Positions 1-24,017 of a stretch of 64,000 nt of DNA are shown piece by piece. Every line of letters starts with the position of its first letter. Position 1 is the first letter of the stretch. This DNA is from a phage. Made by a program: the position numbers and the translations under genes. The stretch lies in the sequence record PQ327946.1; one strand, written 5' to 3'. The notes beneath the pieces were generated by a model. It was given only the letters and a program-made list of their open reading frames with translations, was not told the origin of the DNA and made no database searches.

Positions 1-152
1 AACCCGGCATTCAGTGCACCACCTAATGCAATATTCAACATCGGAATACGAGTAGGGACTTCATCACGATTATTAAACAGCTTAGACTTAGTCAAGTCTG
101 CAGTCATTTTAGAAGTAGAAGCTTTAATCAGACGAGATTTTAAATCAGACAT
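1..152 (-). CDS. uvsX: UvsX RecA-like recombinase, N-terminal ~50 codons; gene continues past window start
   Basis: ATG at 152..150; translation MSDLKSRLIKASTSKMTADLTKSKLF... matches the T4 UvsX N-terminus as I recall it; synteny with gene 42. Confidence 0.8.
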   Translation of the reverse strand, partial: MSDLKSRLIKASTSKMTADLTKSKLFNNRDEVPTRIPMLNIALGGALNAG

Positions 153-205
153 TGTATTTTTCCATAGGCATCATTATATTTTACTCATGTTTAAAAGATA
201 AGACG

Positions 206-233
206 ATTATATACTAAGGGTTATACAGCATTT
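206..233 (-). promoter_or_regulatory. Candidate MotA-type middle promoter upstream of uvsX
   Basis: Minus strand reads AAATGCTGTA, 12 nt, TATAAT, resembling a MotA box plus -10. Confidence 0.3.
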
Positions 234-252
234 AAAAACTTTAAACAGGCTC

Positions 253-801
253 TTAACGAGCCCATTTGATAATTTCTGTAATCAAATTATTACGTTCGCT
301 TGCATTAAATCCTATAACTTTGTTAGCACCATCATGATTAAGTAATTGATACGTTTGGATTTCGTTATGAATTGCAAACTCTTCAAAATATGAAATGACT
401 GTATTAAAACCGAATGAAGACAAAGTAATAAGGTCGTCTTCAAAACTTTCAGTCATTTCGTTACGTGTTAAAATAATTGTGAACACATCATGGTTTTGGC
501 AAAGACGAACATAATCCTGTTCATAAACGTCAAGAACCGAGTCCGCATCTTGTCGAATACGTCCATAAACCCAGTTACTAATATATCCACGGTCTAACAG
601 ATAAATCTTAGTAGGGTCTAAATAATTCAACATCGTTTCGAAACAGCCAACTTCATTTCGAGACTTAACATCGAAACGTCCATCAACTGTTCGTTTAAGG
701 AAATCAATCTTTACATATCTTTCACTAATTTCCATTATGTCATTAATGAAAGTTGTTTTACCAGCATTATCCGGGCCATCTACTAAAATAATTTTAGCCA
801 T
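253..801 (-). CDS. P-loop NTPase, small kinase-like protein
   Basis: 182 aa ORF; Walker A GPDNAGKTT near N-terminus; ATG at 801..799. Confidence 0.55.
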   Translation of the reverse strand: MAKIILVDGPDNAGKTTFINDIMEISERYVKIDFLKRTVDGRFDVKSRNEVGCFETMLNYLDPTKIYLLDRGYISNWVYGRIRQDADSVLDVYEQDYVRLCQNHDVFTIILTRNEMTESFEDDLITLSSFGFNTVISYFEEFAIHNEIQTYQLLNHDGANKVIGFNASERNNLITEIIKWAR

Positions 802-802
802 T

Positions 803-1702
803 TTATTCCTCGATTACGACATCTTCATATTTAGGTATATTATACGGTGAAGAAATTAAAGCGTTAAAGTAGATGAACTCACCAAGACCTGGATGGAATA
901 CTTCTTCAGGATTTTCGAAATATTGAATCTTCGGACGTCCTTTAAGAATTTGATAGTACTCAGTTTTAGTTGGATTAAAAATTCGAATCAGCGCTTCTTC
1001 AGGATACTTATTTCTGTCGAAACTATTATTTGGATCAGTTATATAAAGCGGTTGACCTAATTGAATTGCGCATTCAACCACTTGTTCAAAACGATAGCAC
1101 GGGTCACTAATTCGAAATGGATGAAAAATACCATCTAGATGAATAGGAGCCAAATCACCTACAAGACGCTGCATGATGGAAGGACGTATAACTTTCTGCG
1201 TTACGATAATCTTATTACCATCCGCACCAGCGTTAACCAGCACTTCCTTTTGACGTTCATTCAACACAGTAGTTTGAAGTGAACGATTAACCGACAACAT
1301 GTCGGTTTTTAAGAATTCGTCAATATAAAAACGCGGTTTATTAGGGTCTGCGGTGATATTGAAATTGAATTCTACATCAAAAGCACCATCATATCCAGTG
1401 ATATCTGTTATTAGAAAATCACAATCATAATAAGCAATTAATGAATCAACCACAAATTCATTTTCAGACCAGAAATATTTACGAGTGTTATACGCGTTAT
1501 CTTTATACCATAATGGAACAAACTTAAATTCTGGGAAAAGACGTTCACATTCTTTAATATCAGATGCATTACGTGGATATGTAATCACATCACCTGGATT
1601 AGCACGGTGCAAATGAAGTTGGAAGTTGCCATCCTTAAGGATAGCATACTGTCCAGTTTCATAAGACCGCATACTCAAGATAGGTACGCGGAAAATAGCC
1701 AT
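803..1702 (-). CDS. Hypothetical protein in the syntenic slot of T4 beta-glucosyltransferase; candidate novel DNA-modifying transferase
   Basis: 299 aa ORF between uvsX and gene 42; no resemblance to T4 beta-gt as I recall it. Confidence 0.5.
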   Translation of the reverse strand: MAIFRVPILSMRSYETGQYAILKDGNFQLHLHRANPGDVITYPRNASDIKECERLFPEFKFVPLWYKDNAYNTRKYFWSENEFVVDSLIAYYDCDFLITDITGYDGAFDVEFNFNITADPNKPRFYIDEFLKTDMLSVNRSLQTTVLNERQKEVLVNAGADGNKIIVTQKVIRPSIMQRLVGDLAPIHLDGIFHPFRISDPCYRFEQVVECAIQLGQPLYITDPNNSFDRNKYPEEALIRIFNPTKTEYYQILKGRPKIQYFENPEEVFHPGLGEFIYFNALISSPYNIPKYEDVVIEE

Positions 1703-2418
1703 TAGTCAAGGAATCCTTTAACATAATCAAAATCACGTTCAAACACATGGGCACTTACCATGGTATGAGTATAATCACCAACTTCTACACCACATTCGTT
1801 AGCGATATAATGAAGTAATTTTCCTTGGAGATAAAAATCCAACTGCATAACAACAGCACAGTTCTGAGAACGCATATGGCAGTGGGTATAAAGCTTACCA
1901 TCACGAATATAATAAGTCACCGAGTCAGTACATGGATATTCAAGCGTTTCGTCCGAATCAAGCAAAGCCTGATCAGAACTTTCTAGAATTTGGAACACAA
2001 CTCTTCGGGAGTTAGGCTTCTCTTTAAGTTCTTTTAGAAGAGCTGGTAATTGGGCCGCAATGCGAGGACCATAGAAAGTGTTGAAGTTCGCCGGCAAAAC
2101 ATCTGATTTTGGTTTAGAAATAAATTTAGCGACATTAGGATATGCCTTAAACGCTTCTTCTGCGTCAGTACCACCAGAAATCATAAACTTCCAGAAGTCT
2201 TCGGCATATTCATAAGAGATGCGGTTAATACGTGGGTCGGTCATTTTGAATGATGATGGAGTGTCAACAACTACTGTCATAGACCCAATTTCATTACAAC
2301 GTCCAATACGAGAATCAGTTACGAATTCCGGGTTTTCTAAAATTTCACGATTGACTGCTTTAAATGCGGTTTGAAAATCTGCGGCTTTGATATATTTCAT
2401 TGTGTTATGTTTTCCCAT
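1702..2418 (-). CDS. 42: dCMP hydroxymethylase (thymidylate synthase family)
   Basis: 238 aa; ThyA-family motifs YPCTDS and MRSQN; position upstream of gene 43 as in T4. Confidence 0.75.
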   Translation of the reverse strand: MGKHNTMKYIKAADFQTAFKAVNREILENPEFVTDSRIGRCNEIGSMTVVVDTPSSFKMTDPRINRISYEYAEDFWKFMISGGTDAEEAFKAYPNVAKFISKPKSDVLPANFNTFYGPRIAAQLPALLKELKEKPNSRRVVFQILESSDQALLDSDETLEYPCTDSVTYYIRDGKLYTHCHMRSQNCAVVMQLDFYLQGKLLHYIANECGVEVGDYTHTMVSAHVFERDFDYVKGFLD

Positions 2419-2696
2419 GTTTACCTCAATACAATTTATTATATACTCAATTCGTAAAGCTTATTTGAATTTCTTGACAATGTTGATATAACGTAAAGCT
2501 TCAGCATCGATACTTCCAAGAACACTATGAAGAAATGCATCAGCGTAGTATTCCAATTAAACAGGTTCTTTAATCACTTTAGCCGCTTTAGTTTCAAACA
2601 GGCCCATCAGGGCCTTTTTAAGAATTTGTTCGATGCTGTTAATTTTCATAGTCAAAATCTCTTCGTTAAGTTGGTGGTTAAAAGTTTTTCTAGAAA

Positions 2697-3857
2697 TCAT
2701 TCTGGGTACCTCAAAGCGTCGTCAGAGTTAGTTATATCAATAATAGATATAGAATTTTCTGATAACCCATTTTTAGATAACTGACGTTTATAATATCTTT
2801 CACAATATGTACACGTCGTCCCGCAGATTTCATTAGCACAATCGAAATCTGGATGTTTGAACCACCTTTTTTCTAAAAAGCCATCTAACAAAGAGGTTTC
2901 AATATTTACCGTATGTGAAAACTCGGTCTCATTTTCAAGAGTGAAAATGGTCTCTAAAGGCTTCCACAATTCCAACAAATTACCTTCAAATTTTTCGGAA
3001 GCATAAGCTTCAAGAACTTTCAAAATGTAGTCTGTGCTACCTGTACGTCCTGAAACTTTGAATTGAGTGATACCAATATCATTATAAAGTTTCAAATCTT
3101 GAGGACGAACAAAACGAGTTCTCAACCAGTTAAATGGGTCTGTATCACGAGCTTTAATACAGTGCTGCATTGGATACCCATTTAAGGATTTGGCATCATC
3201 TACTGTAACATCGGTGCTATGGAAAATATAGCAAGAGTCACGATAACTACAATGTGTTGTATACCCTTTACCAGCATTAGAACAGAACTCATTTACAAGA
3301 ACTTCAAATATTATATTGTTCTTATTACAAAACTCTGCTGCACGCTTCAGGAAAGAAACTGAACGGTTCTTATGAATTCCGCAGCAGACCTTTTTGATAT
3401 TATATTGGTCATGCAAGTATTTGATTTGAGTTACAGCATCGACATGTAGAATTGTTGAAACTTCAATCTCAATGTCTTTATTGACTTCACGAACAATTTC
3501 CATAACAACAGGGTTAGCGATAGTAATACGCCATACGCCTATTGACCAAAGATACTGAACATAATCCTGAATAGCTTTCTTCTTCCACTCAACTAGTTCT
3601 CTTTTTGAACCAGGATTTATCGTGTTGAGTGTATAGTTAAAGCAAATACCTAATTCGTTACAACGTTTAACGTAGTCTTCTAACATCTTTTTGTCAACGT
3701 CAGGAAGCCTAAAATCAGGTCTGGCTGCTACAAAAGCCATTTCTCTTGTAGAGCCATATACTTCGTTTATCAAGCTATTAGGATAGGTTTTATTGAGCTC
3801 TACGATTTTATCAAGAAGAGCTAAATCAAAATTCGTTCCGATTTTAAAAGTATTCAT
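2697..3857 (-). CDS. U32-like TIM-barrel protein with C-terminal cysteine cluster
   Basis: 386 aa; N-terminal pattern resembles U32 family; C-terminal CANEICGTTCTYC cysteine cluster. Confidence 0.45.
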   Translation of the reverse strand: MNTFKIGTNFDLALLDKIVELNKTYPNSLINEVYGSTREMAFVAARPDFRLPDVDKKMLEDYVKRCNELGICFNYTLNTINPGSKRELVEWKKKAIQDYVQYLWSIGVWRITIANPVVMEIVREVNKDIEIEVSTILHVDAVTQIKYLHDQYNIKKVCCGIHKNRSVSFLKRAAEFCNKNNIIFEVLVNEFCSNAGKGYTTHCSYRDSCYIFHSTDVTVDDAKSLNGYPMQHCIKARDTDPFNWLRTRFVRPQDLKLYNDIGITQFKVSGRTGSTDYILKVLEAYASEKFEGNLLELWKPLETIFTLENETEFSHTVNIETSLLDGFLEKRWFKHPDFDCANEICGTTCTYCERYYKRQLSKNGLSENSISIIDITNSDDALRYPE

Positions 3858-3914
3858 TTTTTTTGCATCCCACGTTAATTGATGCGATGGTTTTTGCAGG
3901 TCTTACTTAAATTA

Positions 3915-4316
3915 TTATAGATTCGGTTTATATGATTTAAATGTTTCGAATTCGCCTTTATTCATAAGAGCTTTGAATTCGTCAGGACGCATAGCTTTGT
4001 CGTCGATAATCCAATCATATACTGGTTTATGTGTTAGCAAATTATGGTACTTCAATCCAATGTTTGCCAAGTTCTGAATCAGACTTGGGAGAATGTCAAT
4101 TGCTATACGACCAGGACCGACTGACTTCATACCGCGAGCAGTGTAAAGCGTTATGGTATGCCCTGCATCATACAGGGCATTAATGGCAGATACCATTTCG
4201 ACGTCTGGTTTGAAGTTCACGTAATCACGATTGTTATTCCACTCTGTTATACAATCATCGACATCAAAACAAAGATTAAGCATGTTTTCTACACGGTGCA
4301 TTAGATTCGTTCCCAT
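3915..4316 (-). CDS. HAD-superfamily phosphatase-like protein (start uncertain)
   Basis: 133 aa ORF; FDVDDCIT fits HAD motif I (DxD); alternative ATG starts at 4301 or 4283. Confidence 0.5.
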   Translation of the reverse strand: MGTNLMHRVENMLNLCFDVDDCITEWNNNRDYVNFKPDVEMVSAINALYDAGHTITLYTARGMKSVGPGRIAIDILPSLIQNLANIGLKYHNLLTHKPVYDWIIDDKAMRPDEFKALMNKGEFETFKSYKPNL

Positions 4317-5986
4317 TGATGAGTGATATCGCCACCGATTGGACGATAAGAAACACCAGTTTCTTTATCAGTTAGTACCCATTTACCAGGATTTTTTGTA
4401 ATCAGAGTAGCCGTTACAGGTTCTGCTACATCATAACTAATAGTGCCGTCCTGAAGTACACGGCCCATGTTACGTAATTGCTTAGTCAGAAGTTCCATAC
4501 CTTTATAATATGCGGCTACCGCTTTAAGTGGATTATTCTTGAAATAACCACCTAATGCAATCCAGATAATTGCTACAGCCAAATGATGATACTCATTAAA
4601 CGAACTCATCTTTCCATATTTGTAAACTAATGGATTGATGTTAATAGTCACATTACAAGTTGTTTCATCAATAGTAAACTGACCCCAGGTCGGATTAGCG
4701 TTGAATTCATCATAACCTGAAACAGCATAAAGCACTTTAGCTTCATCATACAATTTTGGCCCATAAATCTTGGTTTCACCAAAATATCCACGAGGGTCGA
4801 TAAACTTGACTTCACCATTATCAGTAATCATAGTATTACTGAAGTTCGGGTCACCATGAATAACAGAGTACTGTCCCTGAGAACGGTTATGATAACGAAT
4901 AAGGTGTTCTAAAGCTTGTTTCAGCATTGGCTTCAGACGCCCAATCTTAGTGTAGTTCACATGTGTGATTTTACCAAATGAATCAATCAATGGTTGAATA
5001 CTTTCACAACGATCAATAACTTTCGTATAGAATTCTTTAGTGAAATCACGACGAACAGTTTCAGGACTTACAAAATAAGTGTCTGTGCTGAATTTCAGTG
5101 CGTCTAAAATTGCATCAACAATTTGTGGACGAGCAAGACTCGATTTGGATTTAATATATTCAAATGCTGGCTTACCTTTAATGCGTTCCATTTCAAAGTT
5201 ATTTTCATTAACAGAAACTAACTGAGGAACTGAATCTGATTTCACTTTAAGATACCATGAAATCTCATCTTTCTGAAGAGCTCGTCCCTGTTCGGTTAAT
5301 GCGAATTTAGTTACAGTTTCTTCACCAATTTCAACTGCATTAAAACTACGATTAAGTTCACGAACTTCATGAGCTTTTTCAAGTTTAGGCATATCACCTA
5401 AATCAATTAGATTCATAAGCTCTGATTTATTGAATGCGCTGCCGTAAAGGAATTCTACGAAATCACGTCCTTTGCAGTATTCATGAATTTCCTCATCAGT
5501 AGAACCCATATAGAATTCCCAGTCTTTGAACTGATAAATTCCTACAACATTACCACCTGTTGAACCTACGTTAGTGATATTTTCGCCGTCGAAATTATAT
5601 CGACATTCGTCACCCTTAACATAGATTGCGTTAACATTCCAAGACCATGAACCAAAATCAGGAATAATATCACACCAGTTAACAATTACATTATGACCGT
5701 CTAAATCTTTGTGTAATTTAGCAAGAGCATAAGCAGAACCGTACGCTTCATCAACTGTACGAATAGTCACATTGAACCCTTCTTGCTCACAATAAACTCG
5801 AACAGTTTCAGCAAATTTTGAATGAACTACTACAATAATTTCATCTGCGCCAAGGTCAGAATAAATTGTATACAAATTGCTCAGAATAGTGTCTTGTTTA
5901 TAGTTAACAAGCACCTTAGGAATATGATGCGTTATTGGATACAAACGAGTTGCCAGTCCAGCACCAAGAATAACAGCTTTTTTCAT
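4301..5986 (-). CDS. Bifunctional sugar-1-phosphate nucleotidyltransferase / APH-fold sugar kinase
   Basis: 561 aa; N-terminal ILGAGLATRL nucleotidyltransferase signature; C-terminal HGDPNFSN ... DPRG kinase motifs. Confidence 0.6.
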   Translation of the reverse strand: MKKAVILGAGLATRLYPITHHIPKVLVNYKQDTILSNLYTIYSDLGADEIIVVVHSKFAETVRVYCEQEGFNVTIRTVDEAYGSAYALAKLHKDLDGHNVIVNWCDIIPDFGSWSWNVNAIYVKGDECRYNFDGENITNVGSTGGNVVGIYQFKDWEFYMGSTDEEIHEYCKGRDFVEFLYGSAFNKSELMNLIDLGDMPKLEKAHEVRELNRSFNAVEIGEETVTKFALTEQGRALQKDEISWYLKVKSDSVPQLVSVNENNFEMERIKGKPAFEYIKSKSSLARPQIVDAILDALKFSTDTYFVSPETVRRDFTKEFYTKVIDRCESIQPLIDSFGKITHVNYTKIGRLKPMLKQALEHLIRYHNRSQGQYSVIHGDPNFSNTMITDNGEVKFIDPRGYFGETKIYGPKLYDEAKVLYAVSGYDEFNANPTWGQFTIDETTCNVTININPLVYKYGKMSSFNEYHHLAVAIIWIALGGYFKNNPLKAVAAYYKGMELLTKQLRNMGRVLQDGTISYDVAEPVTATLITKNPGKWVLTDKETGVSYRPIGGDITHQWERI

Positions 5987-6167
5987 GTTGTGGTCCTCAT
6001 TGGTAAGTAGGAGTATTGTACACTATTCTAGTTAAAGCATTCATACTTTGCTTGTAGTCCAATCATAATCCATCCGATTATAAGAGTCGGAATCATTACT
6101 GGAGCCGTTAAGCTCCAGTAGATAGTCATGACAAGCATCAATAGTAAAAGTCCTATTGTTATTGCTT

Positions 6168-6803
6168 TCATTGTTCGCCTCGTAACATGGCACCTAGTGC
6201 ACCGCCAGGGTGGAACTTAAGGAAGTCATTAGAGGTAAATCCACGTTCAGACGAAAGGTTGATAGCAAACGTATCGATAAGCGCTAACAACAATGTAGTG
6301 GACATAGTCGGAGCCAGAGAATTCTCATCAACCTCTACTGCGATGCCTGTACAGAACGTATAATCAAAAAGAGCTTCGTATTCTTGTGGAATGTCTGGGT
6401 TACAATGCAACAGAATCTGTTTGACGTTCGGACGAATCATTTTAAGATGCTTAGCCACGCCTATCATTTCTTCAGTTTTACCAGAACGACTAATATGAAT
6501 CAACACATCATTAGGCGCAATGAATCCTGCATCACCGTGAGAATAATGCCCGGTGTTCAAGTACATACTCGGGATACCGAGTGAAGCAAATGTCTCAGAA
6601 GCTTTAGTTGCGATATTAGCGTTCTTACCAACACCTGTAATAATTACACGACTTTCATAATTACTAAGTCCTGGGCGTCGAAGAGTTTCTAGAATAGCAT
6701 TATAACGAGCAGGGTTTTGACTAATTACTTTGGCCATAGCGGCCAAAGAAGAAGCTTGTTTTATGATTGCGTCAATAGCGATAGTAATAGGAGTAGTTTT
6801 CAT
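6168..6803 (-). CDS. SIS-domain sugar-phosphate isomerase
   Basis: 211 aa; ITGVGKNANIA ... HISRSGKTEE pattern typical of SIS domains. Confidence 0.6.
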   Translation of the reverse strand: MKTTPITIAIDAIIKQASSLAAMAKVISQNPARYNAILETLRRPGLSNYESRVIITGVGKNANIATKASETFASLGIPSMYLNTGHYSHGDAGFIAPNDVLIHISRSGKTEEMIGVAKHLKMIRPNVKQILLHCNPDIPQEYEALFDYTFCTGIAVEVDENSLAPTMSTTLLLALIDTFAINLSSERGFTSNDFLKFHPGGALGAMLRGEQ

Positions 6804-6843
6804 ATTTCTCTCATTTAATTAGTTTACCGTCCATGGCATTATA

Positions 6844-9555
6844 TCAAAAATCGAACATATCGAACAGAGATGCTTTCTTCTCGTAATCGAGTTTCGCTGC
6901 TGATGTGAATCCTTCAAGTGGTTTAATAAATGTCTTCTCAAGGAGAACAGTGTAGTCCATCCAATGAAGTACGTCGTCTTTAATTAAATCTGTGATTTCA
7001 GTACCAGAAGGCCATGCGATACATTTATCACCGAATGGGTTTCCTTCACGTAAAGGCAGAACATATACTTTTTCACCTTCTACAACTTGCGGTGCATCGA
7101 TATTACCTTTGATAGCACGGTTATACGTCAGAATTCCACGAATATGGAATGGGCATTTGGGACCAGGGAATCCACCTACATCATATTTAGCAATGTTATT
7201 CGCAGAAGATACCGACGCGATGCTAATATAATTCAATTGACGGAATTCTTTTTCAAACTCTTTAAAATATTCTTGTAATGATTCTTCACCTTCTTGAAGC
7301 ATACGACGAATACATTCTTTAAGAGCTTTCTGTACTGCTTTAGGAGTCGAAGATTTCTGAGTCTCTAGACCCATGATTTTGAGTTTAGGCTCAGCATAAC
7401 GAGTACCTTCCATATCCCACACGTTTAATGCATAACGTTTCTTACCAGTCCAGAATCCACCAATACCTTTAGAACCGAGTGGAGGCCCGGCGATAGCTTC
7501 TCGGTCCATGAACATTAAGTGTTGTTTATTGTTCATGTATTCACACATTTCACGGAAACCTCTATCAATAGCTGGTTCCATACGTTCACGTGCAAACTTA
7601 TCTAAGAAGTCTACCCAATGGTTGGTATCACGGAATTTAGATTCACCAACCTTATCGATAATTTTATCAGCAGATACGTAAATAGAGTCTGTATCACCAT
7701 AAAGAACGAAAGCTTCACCTTCTGTACCACAAACTTCATTCAGATATTCATTAACTTTACGTTCAATCCACTGTAAAGCCATTTGACCAAATGTTGTGAT
7801 TGCAGTAGCATTACGCAAATCGTAATAACGGAACCAAACGTTTCCAAGTGCACCATAAAGCGAGTTGATGAGCAATTTACGGTTAATCTGTGCAGTCATA
7901 CCTGCAACTTCAGTACGTTGAGCTCTAAACAACATTTCATTAAGAGATTTAGCAGACAACTTTTTAATCTTTTCTTTAATCTCATCACTGAAGTCGAAAC
8001 GATAATCAACATCTAATGGTTCGTCAACAGAAAGATTAGGATTATGCAATGCCTCTTTAATTATTTCACCATTACGTTGAGCCGCAAGCATATAACCTTT
8101 ATGTTCTTTACGTTGATTAAAGACTTTAGTGATTTCAGTTGGAACAACACCGTCACGGTCTTTATAATACATCATGCCGTTAGGAGAACAACTGTACACA
8201 TCAGAAGGACGTTCAGCAACAGCGTTAATATAATCATGCAATGGAGCTACTTTAAACGTTCCTGCTATTGTTTCCGGGCTAATATTCACTTGGCGAATAA
8301 TACTTGGATACAGAGATGTAAGGTCGAAACTCATTACATATTTGTATCGATTTGGAATAGGTTCCTTAACAAAAGCGCCGGGATAAGGTTGAACCGGGTG
8401 AGAACGACCTTGTGGAATCACCTTGTTCTGCTCTTTAAGGCTATTAAAAATAATAGCATCCCATGTTTTAATTGGGCTAAACACGGATTGAATCTGTATC
8501 TTAGCATAATAACCCATGTCCAAACTCAAGTTGATGAACTGACGCTTAGCATCAATTTGCAATACACGATACACGTCGATAATGTTATAAGAAATATATC
8601 GTTGGTGATTGCTTTCACGAAGCTTAGAAATAGGGCCGTCATATTTCAGTTTACCAACGTTCAATTCAAATTCTGAAATGTAATCCAGAGAATACGACGG
8701 TTGATTGGTAAAAGAGAATTTTTTGTAAAGGTCAATGTAATCAAGAACAGAGATACCGAATAATGTAATGATTTCACGAGAACCATACATGTTTTCGATA
8801 ACTTTAACACGAGTTTTACGATGTGGTGATAAACGTTTCGCAGTAGATTCGCCAAAAATATTCTTGATTCGGTTATACACATATGGAATATCAAATGACT
8901 CAACGTTCCATCCAGTCAAAATGACAGGAGTTTTCTGTTGCCAGAAATTGAGATATTCCATCAATAATTCTTTTTCGTTATCGAACGGCATATAAATGAT
9001 TTTATCGATAATTTCGGATGGAACTTCATCACCACCTTGTTCTTGAAGCTTAGCCGCAATTTCGATAGACCATTCTTCTACATTACCATATGGAGAATTC
9101 AATAGATCAAATACGTAGAACCTGTCGTCAATTGAGTCATAATGGGTGATAGCATCAATCGGATGTTTTGCTTGTGACGGCTCAGGGAACCCATCCGGAG
9201 ATGTTACTTCGATGTCGAAGTTAGCCACACGAATTTTTGTATGATCGTATTTGATTTCATAGTTATAAGTGTCAGACAAATACGCCAATTTGAAATCGTC
9301 CATGCCAAGTGCTTCAAGACCGATATCTTCCATGCGTTTAATCCATTGGGAGGCATCACGCATATTGGCGAACAACTTACGAGTACACGGCTTACCGTAG
9401 ATATCGAAATATTTCGTAGCCTGACTTTCCGGACAATGAGCAAACAGTGATGGTTTATATTCTACTTCACGAGTACGTTCACGGCCATTAGAATCGATGT
9501 AACGTTCAAAAATTGAATCACCAATCTGTTCAACCGTTAAGTAAAATTCTTTCAT
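6844..9555 (-). CDS. 43: DNA polymerase (family B)
   Basis: 903 aa; exonuclease and polymerase motifs (FDIE, YGDTDS); N-terminus matches RB69-type gp43 as I recall it. Confidence 0.97.
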   Translation of the reverse strand: MKEFYLTVEQIGDSIFERYIDSNGRERTREVEYKPSLFAHCPESQATKYFDIYGKPCTRKLFANMRDASQWIKRMEDIGLEALGMDDFKLAYLSDTYNYEIKYDHTKIRVANFDIEVTSPDGFPEPSQAKHPIDAITHYDSIDDRFYVFDLLNSPYGNVEEWSIEIAAKLQEQGGDEVPSEIIDKIIYMPFDNEKELLMEYLNFWQQKTPVILTGWNVESFDIPYVYNRIKNIFGESTAKRLSPHRKTRVKVIENMYGSREIITLFGISVLDYIDLYKKFSFTNQPSYSLDYISEFELNVGKLKYDGPISKLRESNHQRYISYNIIDVYRVLQIDAKRQFINLSLDMGYYAKIQIQSVFSPIKTWDAIIFNSLKEQNKVIPQGRSHPVQPYPGAFVKEPIPNRYKYVMSFDLTSLYPSIIRQVNISPETIAGTFKVAPLHDYINAVAERPSDVYSCSPNGMMYYKDRDGVVPTEITKVFNQRKEHKGYMLAAQRNGEIIKEALHNPNLSVDEPLDVDYRFDFSDEIKEKIKKLSAKSLNEMLFRAQRTEVAGMTAQINRKLLINSLYGALGNVWFRYYDLRNATAITTFGQMALQWIERKVNEYLNEVCGTEGEAFVLYGDTDSIYVSADKIIDKVGESKFRDTNHWVDFLDKFARERMEPAIDRGFREMCEYMNNKQHLMFMDREAIAGPPLGSKGIGGFWTGKKRYALNVWDMEGTRYAEPKLKIMGLETQKSSTPKAVQKALKECIRRMLQEGEESLQEYFKEFEKEFRQLNYISIASVSSANNIAKYDVGGFPGPKCPFHIRGILTYNRAIKGNIDAPQVVEGEKVYVLPLREGNPFGDKCIAWPSGTEITDLIKDDVLHWMDYTVLLEKTFIKPLEGFTSAAKLDYEKKASLFDMFDF

Positions 9556-21732: not shown

Positions 21733-22203
21733 TTAATCATGTTTCCACACCCCATCGGTATTTGACCAAAGTCGCTGATTATCTGATCCTCGCCACATCT
21801 TTTTAGTCGGAAGATTTTTCTCATACTTCCCATCAATAATAACATCAACATATTTAAGCATTTCTAGTTGTTTAATATCTTCAAACTTATATCCTGTCCA
21901 CAACCAAATGCTTTTATTGGGATAAAGATTTTTTACTGTTTGAGCAATGCGATGAATAACATCTCGGTTATCAGGATAGAGAGGATCTCCTCCGGTTATA
22001 GTTAATCCTTCTATATAATCATTATTCAAACATTCAATCAATTGTTCTAGTGTTTCACCAGTGAATGGAATACCATTTCTAGCGTTCCATGTTGATTTAT
22101 TATAACACCCTTCGCATTTATGCAAACAACCTGTAACGAAAAGAACGACCCTGCAACCAGGGCCATTCACAAAATCGCAAGGATAAAATCTATCATAATT
22201 CAT
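21733..22203 (-). CDS. nrdG: Anaerobic ribonucleotide reductase activating protein (radical SAM)
   Basis: 156 aa; CxxxCxxC motif GCLHKCEGC. Confidence 0.9.
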   Translation of the reverse strand: MNYDRFYPCDFVNGPGCRVVLFVTGCLHKCEGCYNKSTWNARNGIPFTGETLEQLIECLNNDYIEGLTITGGDPLYPDNRDVIHRIAQTVKNLYPNKSIWLWTGYKFEDIKQLEMLKYVDVIIDGKYEKNLPTKKMWRGSDNQRLWSNTDGVWKHD

Positions 22204-24017
22204 TGGTGTTTAACCCTATGCATGATTTCTTTATTTTTACCGAGATTAAATCCGCGTTCGTTCGGATTTCCCAAATAACCACATGTTCTTCTTATGGTGT
22301 TCATCTTTTTAGGATCACTTTCTCCACAAACTGAACAAACAAATCCGTTTTCAGTAGGAGTCATTTCATGAGTACTTCCACATGTAAAACATTTATCTAC
22401 TGGCATATTAACACCAAAATAATCTAAATGTTGTGCAGCATAATCCCAGACAGCCTCAAGACCTTTTAAGTTATTTTTCATATCTGGAAGTTCAACATAA
22501 GAAATGTGACCGCCTGTTGCAATGAAATGATATGGGGCTTCGCGAGAAATCTTTTCAAATGGAGTAATATTTTCTTCTACTGAAACGTGGAAACTGTTAG
22601 TGTACCAGCCTTTATCGGTAACATCTTTTACACTTCCATATTTCTCAGTATCAAGTTTACAGAAGCGATAGCACAGGTTTTCAGCAGGAGTAGAATACAG
22701 GCTAAAAGCAAAACCGGTTCTTTCAGTCCACTGCTTAAGACGAGCATTCATTTTAGTTAAAATTTCCTGTCCAATATCACGTCCGACAAGAATATTCAAT
22801 TCGTGAATACCAATGTATCCTAGGGACACTGAACTTCTGCCGTTTTTAAATAACTCAATTATATCGTCATCAGGTTTAAGACGAACCCCGAATGCACCTT
22901 CTTGGTAAAGAATAGGAGCAACAGTAGCTTTAACTCCTTTTAAGGAACTAATTCTGCACATCAATGCTTCAAAACATAAATCCATTCGTTCATTGAATAA
23001 TTCAACAAATTTCTGTTCATTGAACTGTGTTCCAATATAAGAATCTAACGCAATACGAGGAAGATTCAGTGTTACAACACCAAGATTATTACGTCCATCA
23101 AGAATTTCATTACCAGTCGAATCTTTCCATACGCTCAAGAAACTACGACAGCCCATTGGAGAAACAGGAACAGATGAACCAGTGATAGCTTTATTATTCT
23201 TAACTGAAATAATATCAGGATACATTCTTTTGCTTGCACACTCTAGAGCAAGCTGCTTAATATCATAATTCGGATCGTCTTTATAAAGATTAACACCTTC
23301 TTCAACGAACATAACAAGTTTAGGGAAAATAGGAGTTATCCCATCGCGACCAAGACCTTTAATACGATTTTTCAGAATTGCTTTCTGAATCATTCGTTCA
23401 GTCCAGTCAGTTCCAGTACCAAATGTAATTGTCACAAAAGGCGTTTGTCCGTTTGAACTAAAGAGAGTATTTACTTCATATTCATAAGCTTGGAATGCAT
23501 CGTATACGTCTTTTTCTGTTTTAGATTGGGCATAATTCAGCGCATCAGCGATTTGCCATTTTTCTGCATCTTCAATATGTTTTGCGTAGGTGCGTTTAAC
23601 ATAAGGAGAAAGGACTTTATCTACATTCGCAAATGTAGTTCCACCGTATTGATGGGAAGCAACCTGCGCAGTAATTTGTGCCATAATTGCAGTAGCAACA
23701 CCAATCGATTTAGGCGTTTCAATTTGAGCATTGCCTAATTTAAATCCATTCTCAAGCATCCCCTTTAAATCGACTAAACAGCAATTAGTAAATGGAAGAG
23801 CAGGAGAATAATCAATATCATGCATGTGGATAATTCCACTTTCGTGTGCTTTCATAATAAAAGACGGGACCATATTTTTGGCAATGTGCTTAGACACAAT
23901 ACCAGCCATAAGGTCCCGTTGAGTTGGAAAAACACGAGAATCTTTATTAGCATTCTCGTTCAAAAGATCTTTATTAGTTTTATGAATTAATCCTTCAATT
24001 TCTTTTTCAATTTTCAT
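22200..24017 (-). CDS. nrdD: Anaerobic ribonucleoside-triphosphate reductase
   Basis: 605 aa; C-terminal zinc-ribbon cysteines and glycyl radical motif RTCGYLG; uninterrupted. Confidence 0.93.
   Translation of the reverse strand: MKIEKEIEGLIHKTNKDLLNENANKDSRVFPTQRDLMAGIVSKHIAKNMVPSFIMKAHESGIIHMHDIDYSPALPFTNCCLVDLKGMLENGFKLGNAQIETPKSIGVATAIMAQITAQVASHQYGGTTFANVDKVLSPYVKRTYAKHIEDAEKWQIADALNYAQSKTEKDVYDAFQAYEYEVNTLFSSNGQTPFVTITFGTGTDWTERMIQKAILKNRIKGLGRDGITPIFPKLVMFVEEGVNLYKDDPNYDIKQLALECASKRMYPDIISVKNNKAITGSSVPVSPMGCRSFLSVWKDSTGNEILDGRNNLGVVTLNLPRIALDSYIGTQFNEQKFVELFNERMDLCFEALMCRISSLKGVKATVAPILYQEGAFGVRLKPDDDIIELFKNGRSSVSLGYIGIHELNILVGRDIGQEILTKMNARLKQWTERTGFAFSLYSTPAENLCYRFCKLDTEKYGSVKDVTDKGWYTNSFHVSVEENITPFEKISREAPYHFIATGGHISYVELPDMKNNLKGLEAVWDYAAQHLDYFGVNMPVDKCFTCGSTHEMTPTENGFVCSVCGESDPKKMNTIRRTCGYLGNPNERGFNLGKNKEIMHRVKHQ

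Follow-up and report, generated by a model that had tools for sequence, protein, structure and literature searches.

A U32 protein in the arabinosyl-5-hydroxycytosine gene block of an RB69-like phage: a candidate oxygen-independent pyrimidine hydroxylase

INTRODUCTION

What is the function of a U32 protein that is encoded among phage genes preparing an arabinose donor for the modification of cytosine? The question is raised by a stretch of phage DNA, 64,000 nt of sequence record PQ327946.1, that we call the window; positions are counted from its first letter. Its sequence places the source among the RB69-like Mosigviruses. A sequence-only reading of the window had drawn attention to four genes in the imm slot, encoding a SIS isomerase (6168..6803), a fused nucleotidyltransferase/kinase (NTase/kinase; 4301..5986), a HAD-type phosphatase (3915..4316) and a U32 protein (2697..3857), and had interpreted them as a cassette for sugar activation. 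The minus strand has all four open reading frames (ORFs) at these coordinates, and the order of genes at the equivalent place in T4 (43 - imm.1 - imm - 42 - beta-gt) confirms the position.

The flagged cassette is already known; the pathway was put forward in 2018, and the details followed in 2025-2026 (Mahler 2025; He 2026; Lee 2026). Thomas et al. 2018 (PMC6024577) reported that the DNA of RB69 bears arabinose, and that ORF053c/052c is a single 561-residue gene, which they proposed to act with ORF055c in the synthesis of UDP-arabinose. Lee et al. 2026 (PMC13326640) identified the base as 5-hydroxycytosine carrying ether-linked mono- and di-arabinose. Arabinosyl-5-hydroxycytosine was found in the DNA of RB69 and of Mosigvirus NP by liquid chromatography-mass spectrometry and nuclear magnetic resonance (PMC13326640; PMC13390438), and the 2026 study of Mosigvirus NP declared the earlier hydroxymethyl assignment erroneous. 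RB69 gp48 was shown by 18O2 labelling to be a 5-hydroxy-dCMP (5hodCMP) synthase using flavin and O2, and gp55, gp52:53 and gp51 were assigned to the synthesis of NDP-arabinofuranose (PMC13326640). We regard it as very probable that the block in the window belongs to this published cluster, and that the functions of the orthologs carry over to it.

The U32 gene is left unexplained in the published accounts consulted, and the known cytosine hydroxylase needs O2. The RB69 ortholog, gp50, is listed by Lee et al. in a table only, as a 'sugar or heterocycle reductase', and is not discussed; their discussion cites two pathways of tRNA pyrimidine hydroxylation, and the fact that TrhP is a U32 protein goes unmentioned (PMC13326640).

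RESULTS AND DISCUSSION

The U32 protein and its relatives

The protein encoded at 2697..3857 is 98% identical to RB69 gp50, and matches Peptidase_U32 (PF01136) with an E-value of 6.3e-11 (score 42.4 bits, gathering threshold 22.4). No other protein of the cluster is as well conserved; across genera its identity is 80-86%, compared with 68-82% for the thymidylate synthase (TS) homolog and 44-72% for the NTase/kinase. Compared with RB69 its dN/dS is 0.03, i.e. it is under strong purifying selection. Members of the phage subfamily are ~360-390 aa in length and share ten invariant cysteine residues (158, 177, 192, 203, 209, 233, 340, 345, 349 and 352), with a spacing of CX10CX5CX23C followed by a C-terminal CX4CX3CX2C.

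The AF2 model of the protein (pLDDT 90.5) is a TIM barrel, for which the top Foldseek match in the PDB is 5D88 (E 1.9e-7); a search of the PDB by sequence with the phage protein gave no match. To our knowledge 5D88 is the only solved U32 structure. Two E. coli paralogs, RlhA and UbiU, were compared with the phage protein by hhalign. RlhA was the better match, aligning over 203 columns (E 1.7e-5, probability 78%) with correspondence of the segments 'CYI.H' and 'FK.xGR', and UbiU was much poorer. The C-terminal CX4CX3CX2C (residues 340-352) is invariant in the subfamily and lies beyond the core cysteines. It is lacking in the four E. coli paralogs, and the C-terminal cysteine set of RlhA is different (C572, C580, C611 and C614). 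A second site, for a metal or an Fe-S cluster, is suggested by this motif.

The U32 proteins that have been characterised contain a [4Fe-4S] cluster and are required for O2-independent hydroxylations in which prephenate donates the oxygen. UbiU/UbiV have ubiquinone precursors as substrates, TrhP generates ho5U34 in tRNA, and RlhA generates 5-hydroxycytidine (ho5C2501) in 23S rRNA (PMC6747719, PMC10990095, PMC5727448, PMC6599085). By analogy with these enzymes the phage protein could provide an Fe-S, prephenate-dependent, O2-independent route to 5-hydroxy-dCMP, rather than act on a sugar. We give this proposal an even chance of being correct.

A function outside DNA modification should be considered at this point. 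In GenBank such proteins are labelled 'peptidase' or 'putative protease', and the gene lies in the stretch between genes 43 and uvsX that is described as plastic (PMC6024577), so that the protein might be a protease of the PrtC/collagenase-like kind, or the product of an unrelated auxiliary metabolic gene. However, the invariant cysteine clusters are typical of the Fe-S U32 hydroxylases and not of a protease active site, a context of nucleotide and DNA-glycosylation genes is kept in 21 lineages (below) of only 45-55% identity, and the U32 gene relocates jointly with that for chorismate mutase (CM). We consider a role of this kind to be very unlikely.

Gene neighbourhoods of U32 homologs

Homologs of the phage U32 protein with 45-58% identity (268 matches) occur in unrelated viral contigs. 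Their neighbours there are genes for thymidylate-kinase-like (TMK-like) proteins, dCMP deaminase, dUTPase, UDG, NT5C, dNK and DNA polymerase. A scan of IMG/VR gave 52 U32 loci, and clustering at 70% identity reduced these to 21 lineages. The contigs have a G+C content of 22-40%, apart from one lineage at ~52%. A glycosyltransferase of the GT1 family is encoded within 5 kb of U32 in 14 of the 21 lineages, the NTase/kinase in 10 and SIS in 8, and chorismate mutase and/or DAHP synthase stands by U32 in 5. By contrast, a TS homolog of the hydroxylase type was found within 10 kb of U32 in a single lineage, that of the T4-like phages. Among the remaining 20 lineages the GT1 family is beside U32 in 13. 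The TS search was performed using jackhmmer with four seeds (E. coli ThyA, T4 gp42, the protein of the window and the match in contig L029). The latter is a 230-kb viral contig that includes U32, and its gene (L029:5509-6360) is the only other of the TS family. It is of the canonical ThyA type (L143/D169/N177), and the GT1 homolog follows it immediately downstream.

The glycosyltransferase requires a hydroxyl group on the base, which in the T4-like phages comes from the O2-dependent TS-type enzyme. We read U32 as a candidate O2-independent pyrimidine C5 hydroxylase because GT1 is present without a TS-type hydroxylase in 13 further lineages, and because genes for the supply of prephenate are found in 5. 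Among the recurrent layouts are the order dUTPase_2-like, TMK-like, GT1, U32 and polymerase; the order GT1, SIS, NTase/kinase, TMK-like, a DAHP synthase::chorismate mutase fusion, HAD and U32; and U32 followed by chorismate mutase, with the NTase/kinase ~1-2.5 kb further downstream.

The same neighbourhoods bear on the suggestion that U32 acts on the sugar, as the fourth member of the enzyme set that makes NDP-arabinose, which was the sequence-only reading and which the table entry of Lee et al. 2026 would also allow. In the T4-like phages the U32 gene has that of the HAD phosphatase on one side and base-modifying genes on the other, which is in keeping with such a role, as is the presence of the NTase/kinase within 5 kb in about half of the lineages (~10/21). 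Yet GT1 adjoins U32 in 7 lineages that have none of SIS, NTase/kinase and HAD, five of which have the TMK-like kinase too. Arabinose genes are also found where U32 is missing, in DLP3, in Dhakavirus, in 57 records of Acinetobacter phages, and in JS98 and AM101. In these last two, which are phages of E. coli and Acinetobacter respectively, HAD has a TS or TMK gene as its immediate neighbour. Since U32 and the arabinose genes occur apart from each other, the inclusion of U32 in the sugar-activation set does not hold. In addition AfhE and AfhF, the NTase/kinase and phosphatase of phage HY126, suffice to convert arabinose-5-phosphate to UDP-arabinose (as summarised in PMC13326640), no U32 member is known to have a sugar substrate, and a role on the sugar would not account for the association with chorismate mutase and DAHP synthase. 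We find a sugar-directed role highly improbable.

Prephenate supply

In the Enterobacter phage Entb_45 the end of the U32 gene is overlapped by one annotated as chorismate mutase, which matches Pfam CM_2 at 2.4e-10. Matches to CM_2 above the gathering threshold were obtained for Klebsiella phage CP-p-KP-21072, Pectobacterium phage PM2, Yersinia phage phiR1-RT, Proteus phage phiP4-3, Serratia phage CHI14 and Shewanella phage Thanatos-2. A chorismate mutase of the AroQ type thus adjoins U32 in all seven of the non-Mosigvirus genera sampled (7/7), and every phage record that has this CM (51/51) has it at the U32 locus. In Thanatos-2 the U32 gene has been relocated within the cluster, and the chorismate mutase gene along with it.

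The phage CM family can be related to solved chorismate mutases (1YBZ, 3.5e-17; 1ECM, 5e-5). Its invariant residues are R8, R25, K36, E49, S71 and Q75, the spacing of which we take to match that of the catalytic R11, R28, K39, E52, S84 and Q88 of the E. coli enzyme (1ECM). The phage enzyme is predicted to be catalytically complete.

DAHP synthase is encoded immediately beside U32 in two of the viral contigs, at L027:9384-10130 and at L040:7302-8357, the latter carrying chorismate mutase as a C-terminal fusion. We considered whether these DAHP_synth_1 proteins might instead be KDO8P synthases, which would tie them to arabinose-5-phosphate. This was rejected, as they match solved DAHP synthases at 1e-36 to 1e-48 compared with 1e-6 to 1e-11 for KDO8P synthase. 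We note that phage-borne enzymes of entry into the shikimate pathway are unusual as auxiliary metabolic genes.

In RB69 the slot is occupied by gp49, which has the same length as the chorismate mutase and is unrelated to it. The corresponding 79-codon frame of the window (2461..2700, minus strand) is stopped by an in-frame TAA at 2557-2559, where RB69 has CAA, leaving an ORF of 47 codons (2557..2700) seen in the translation. The identical truncation is found in phage S143_2. The possibility that the gp49-like ORF is a diverged chorismate mutase was discarded; neither the window nor the RB69 sequence matches CM_2, and hhalign against the phage CMs gave a probability of 0.1%.

A possible route to 5-hydroxycytosine under anoxia

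The window also encodes an anaerobic ribonucleotide reductase, comprising NrdD (22200..24017, minus strand; 605 aa, NRDD 1e-171) and the NrdG activase (21733..22203, minus strand; 156 aa, with a CX3CX2C motif). The phage is therefore equipped for the synthesis of dNTPs in the absence of oxygen. We propose that U32 would supply the same 5-hydroxy-pyrimidine nucleotide under anoxia, where the O2-dependent TS-type enzyme cannot work, and where dNTPs would come from the phage's own NrdD/NrdG. In most of the related genera a chorismate mutase beside U32 would feed the reaction with prephenate, and the Mosigviruses, having lost chorismate mutase, would rely on prephenate from the host PheA/TyrA. In RB69-like phages U32 would be the anaerobic partner of gp48, and in many uncultured low-GC phages it would apparently be the only hydroxylase serving the glycosyltransferase. 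The published pathway and this proposal for U32 make, when taken together, an account that we hold to be moderately probable.

The distribution among hosts can be set beside this. The NTase/kinase was found in 369 phage records, 57 of which are from Acinetobacter phages, and U32 in 222, with no Acinetobacter listed; the hosts of the isolates that bear U32 are Enterobacterales or Shewanella. Acinetobacter is a strict aerobe, and when 2,912 phage records with NrdD are ranked by organism name it is not in the top ten (the tenth name having 41 records). A strict rule, by which U32 would occur in all phages of facultative anaerobes and in no others, was rejected, being broken by the E. coli Dhakaviruses that lack U32.

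A number of observations weigh against the assignment of U32 as an anaerobic hydroxylase. Hydroxylase activity has been reconstituted in vitro for no U32 protein (PMC10990095). The phage proteins are very distant from those of known function, and HMMER and BLASTP comparisons with UbiU, UbiV, RlhA and TrhP gave nothing significant. With respect to the canonical cluster pattern CX6CX15CX3/4C, C203 and C209 fall on C169 and C176 of RlhA, and the remaining ligands are unaligned. The E. coli Dhakaviruses do without U32, and it is therefore accessory. Four of the 21 lineages have no marker gene near U32, a further two have only the kinase and/or a shikimate-pathway gene, and the neighbourhoods were read over +-10 kb of each contig. 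There is no chorismate mutase in the slot in Marfavirus or in the Mosigviruses, including the window, and the gp49-like ORF of the Mosigviruses seems to have taken its place and to be in decay itself. Lastly, the level of the substrate (dCMP, DNA or RNA) is inferred from the neighbouring kinase genes alone. A search of the literature on U32, prephenate or chorismate mutase in connection with phage cytosine modification found no report, He 2026 and Mahler 2025 being possible exceptions.

The choice of substrate deserves comment, for a prephenate-dependent hydroxylase might act on a polymer, i.e. the cytosines of replicated phage DNA, or host rRNA or tRNA, and not on dCMP. Both of the characterised U32 proteins that hydroxylate pyrimidines use RNA polymers, and one of them, RlhA, gave a better hhalign match than UbiU. 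Against that, the recurrent neighbours act on mononucleotides (TMK-like, dUTPase_2-like, dCMP deaminase, NT5C, dNK and an HD 5'-deoxynucleotidase), and a Pfam scan of the U32 protein revealed no nucleic-acid-binding domain. Moreover the full replacement of cytosine in the DNA (PMC13326640) would be easier to achieve via the nucleotide pool. Action on a polymer seems to us rather unlikely.

If U32 does hydroxylate the nucleotide, the consequences would be of some breadth. These phages live in the gut and encode an anaerobic ribonucleotide reductase, and the need of the known hydroxylase for O2 leaves a gap that prephenate-dependent hydroxylation by U32 would fill; they could then hypermodify their DNA under anoxia. 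It would account for the chorismate mutase and DAHP synthase genes of phages, and would be the first case of phage rewiring of the shikimate pathway by these enzymes for DNA modification. Modification of the 5-hydroxycytosine type would reach many uncultured phages. No U32 hydroxylase is known to act on a small soluble molecule or to be encoded by a virus, and the protein would be the first in both respects; such a substrate would permit the in vitro assay of prephenate-dependent hydroxylation that the U32 field says is missing. There is a bearing on phage therapy and engineering too, since how sensitive a phage is to restriction, CRISPR and type IV systems depends on its state of modification under anoxia. 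The association of U32 with chorismate mutase and DAHP synthase is one well-supported and directly testable lead that stands beside the known system.

The base-modifying enzymes of the block

The gene at 1702..2418 (minus strand) encodes the TS homolog (Thymidylat_synt, 2.4e-15), the ortholog of RB69 gp48, with which its amino-acid identity is 1.00 when rounded. In an alignment with E. coli ThyA and T4 gp42 it has the substitutions L143E, D169N and N177D, as do RB69 gp48, JS98, Thanatos and others; T4 gp42 retains D169. Positions 143, 169 and 177 are those that Lee et al. (PMC13326640) take as diagnostic. By these residues the protein is an O2/flavin-dependent dCMP 5-hydroxylase (5hodCMP synthase), and not a hydroxymethylase. 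The sequence-only reading had called this neighbour a dCMP hydroxymethylase and the product arabinosyl-hydroxymethylcytosine, and both have to be replaced; arabinose is joined through an ether bond to 5-hydroxycytosine (PMC13326640; PMC13390438).

The glycosyltransferase gene at 803..1702 (minus strand; 299 aa) occupies the slot of beta-gt in T4. The protein is homologous to RB69 gp46:47 (RB69p046/047), for which a GT fold was assigned in PMC13326640 Table 1, and matches phrog_3891 at 1.5e-155. It is predicted to be DNA arabinosyltransferase 1 of the GT1 family. The absence of alpha- and beta-gt had been remarked upon, and this stands insofar as RB69 has no homolog of either (PMC6024577), but a DNA glycosyltransferase does adjoin. 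Beyond it lies the gene for the TMK-like nucleotide kinase (253..801, minus strand), the ortholog of RB69 gp45 (RB69p045), which matches phrog_761 'thymidylate kinase' at 1.8e-43.

In this part of the pathway the TS homolog would hydroxylate dCMP at C5 using flavin and O2, the hydroxylated nucleotide would be phosphorylated and built into DNA, and the glycosyltransferase would then arabinosylate the 5-OH group.

The arabinose-donor enzymes

Profile searches largely agreed with the domains proposed from the sequence, with SIS, NTP_transferase, APH-type (weakly) and U32 all found in Pfam, and HAD through TIGR01689 and a weak HAD-IIIA match. The SIS protein (6168..6803), the ortholog of RB69 gp55 (RB69p055), matches Pfam SIS at 1.7e-10, the NCBIfam models KpsF/GutQ at 2.2e-32 and KdsD at 1.2e-30, and the PHROG 'arabinose 5-phosphate isomerase' at 2e-116. 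It has a single SIS domain without the pair of CBS domains. It is predicted to be an arabinose-5-phosphate isomerase that converts ribulose-5-phosphate to arabinose-5-phosphate, in agreement with the role proposed for gp55 (PMC6024577, PMC13326640).

The NTase/kinase (4301..5986), of the RB69 gp52:53 / HY126 AfhE type (RB69p052/053), is intact at 561 aa, matching the re-sequenced gene of PMC6024577. NTP_transferase is matched over residues 3-99 (2e-9), and APH-type kinases weakly over residues 344-409; among NCBIfam models there are matches to Arch_glmU (1.2e-13) and AglF (1.3e-12). The sequence contains GAGLATRLYPIT, which is RmlA-like, and HGDPNFSN...IDPRG, corresponding to the Brenner/APH motif. 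These features indicate that the protein is bifunctional, with an N-terminal sugar-1-phosphate nucleotidyltransferase and a C-terminal APH-like kinase.

The small phosphatase (3915..4316) is putatively of the HAD-IIIA type and corresponds to RB69 gp51 (RB69p051) and AfhF. A Pfam search with this protein gave no match. It matches phrog_1238 at 5e-43, the EcbF/BcbF capsule-biosynthesis phosphatase model TIGR01689 at 4.3e-13 and HAD-IIIA at 0.026, the last two being under their curated cutoffs, and it contains the motif I sequence DVDDC. A structural match to heptose-1,7-bisphosphate phosphatase has been reported (PMC13326640).

The order of the reactions comes from the HY126 route of He et al. 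2026, as it is summarised in PMC13326640. AfhE phosphorylates arabinose-5-phosphate to the 1,5-bisphosphate, AfhF removes the 5-phosphate, and AfhE then converts arabinose-1-phosphate to UDP-arabinofuranose. In the window, the SIS enzyme would make arabinose-5-phosphate from ribulose-5-phosphate, the kinase domain of the 561-aa protein would convert this to arabinose-1,5-bisphosphate, the HAD phosphatase would remove the 5-phosphate, and the nucleotidyltransferase domain would generate UDP-arabinofuranose from arabinose-1-phosphate. The proposal that these three proteins provide NDP-arabinose for the hypermodification of cytosine is borne out by what is published for the RB69 orthologs; the passage through free arabinose that went with it is superseded by the bisphosphate route (PMC13326640). 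We note that the same paper is not consistent on this point. Its Table 1 keeps the free-arabinose route, with the phosphatase acting on Araf5P and the kinase on arabinose, and its text has the 1,5-bisphosphate; the route of the sequence-only reading is the older version, that of Table 1.

Comparison with known systems

The block resembles the RB69/HY126/DLP3 pathway (with its Aat glycosyltransferases) in gene order, in the D169N TS homolog and in the trio of isomerase, kinase/NTase and phosphatase. It differs in the stop codon that truncates the gp49 of the window, and the published descriptions consulted give gp50 no real role.

A likeness to the logic of the ADP-heptose enzymes GmhA/HldE/GmhB had been pointed out, and this holds. 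Both pathways have a ketose-phosphate isomerase, an anomeric kinase generating a bisphosphate, a distal phosphatase and a nucleotidyltransferase, with kinase and nucleotidyltransferase fused. The block differs in using a pentose and a UDP carrier, compared with heptose and ADP. The added statement that different folds are employed is correct for the kinase, which is APH/choline-kinase-like and not PfkB as in HldE, and for the NTase, which is RmlA/GlmU-like and not cytidylyltransferase-like. It fails for the other two, as GmhA is also a SIS protein and GmhB is a HAD-IIIA phosphatase, which that of the window resembles. The isomerase of the window matches KpsF/GutQ and KdsD, and GmhA is not among the NCBIfam models listed.

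The phage U32 proteins share with RlhA, TrhP and UbiU/UbiV the PF01136 domain, the TIM barrel, conserved cysteines (two of which align with cluster ligands of RlhA) and a genomic tie to prephenate supply, and the chemistry proposed for them, hydroxylation of cytosine at C5, is that of RlhA. Unlike these, the phage subfamily is virus-encoded, has its own cysteine spacing, and has a presumed deoxynucleotide substrate rather than RNA or a quinone. The presence of an O2-dependent enzyme side by side with a candidate O2-independent U32 recalls the pairs TrhO/TrhP, UbiI,H,F/UbiU,V and NrdAB/NrdDG of facultative anaerobes and their phages, with the difference that only the O2-dependent member of the phage pair has been demonstrated.

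Compared with the glucosyl-hydroxymethylcytosine system of T4, the neighbourhood is the same, and both have a TS-family enzyme acting on dCMP, full replacement of cytosine, and addition of sugar after replication. In the window the base is hydroxylated, the sugar is arabinose and not glucose, and its donor is made by the phage. The RB69-type glycosyltransferase is unrelated to alpha-gt and beta-gt of T4 (PMC6024577).

Organization of the block and minor observations

Nine minus-strand genes in a single orientation run from the DNA polymerase gene (6844..9555), which bounds the block at one end, to a terminator-like hairpin (267..243). The block is collinear with RB69 gp45-gp55, its proteins are 98-100% identical to those of RB69, and ~150 Mosigvirus genomes keep it with 95-99% identity. 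Relative to the RB69 record, gp46:47 and gp52:53 are intact in the window, the RB69 versions being split by sequencing errors. The hairpin, on the minus strand immediately past the end of the TMK-like kinase gene, has a 10-bp stem followed by a T-run. It is the sole convincing terminator-like site within 1..7200, and probably ends the gene block. A promoter scan of the same interval gave no excess over shuffled sequence.

Two of the U32 neighbourhoods contain further genes of possible interest. In contig L030, with the layout TMK-like, GT1, U32, the U32 gene is followed by one for a 356-aa protein (L030:11090-12160) that resembles GT47/exostosin at 7.5e-6, under the Pfam cutoff; this may be a second DNA glycosyltransferase. 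At L002 (1..17098) and L003 a bacterial-looking contig (glutamate-cysteine ligase, MarR, dockerin/GH43) has a U32 homolog beside NT5C. Nearby are genes for NMN-transporter-like, dNK, AlaRS-like domain, radical SAM/SPASM and nucleoside deoxyribosyltransferase-like proteins, and a faint match to a second U32 paralog. The set may represent a nucleoside-modification island of an anaerobe, and the genes for dockerin and GH43 suggest an anaerobic Firmicute as the source.

The sequence-only reading passed over four features of the block: the glycosyltransferase, the TMK-like kinase, the gp49-like ORF, and a small ORF between the SIS and NTase/kinase genes (6028..6171, minus strand). The last encodes 47 aa with two hydrophobic segments, a putative membrane protein similar to RB69 gp54 (phrog_3610, 4.5e-27). 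It lies between the same two genes in several genera, and ORFs of 46-47 codons occupy the equivalent slot in PM2 and CHI14. RB69p054 is annotated as 'similar to T4 42-imm intercistronic region'.

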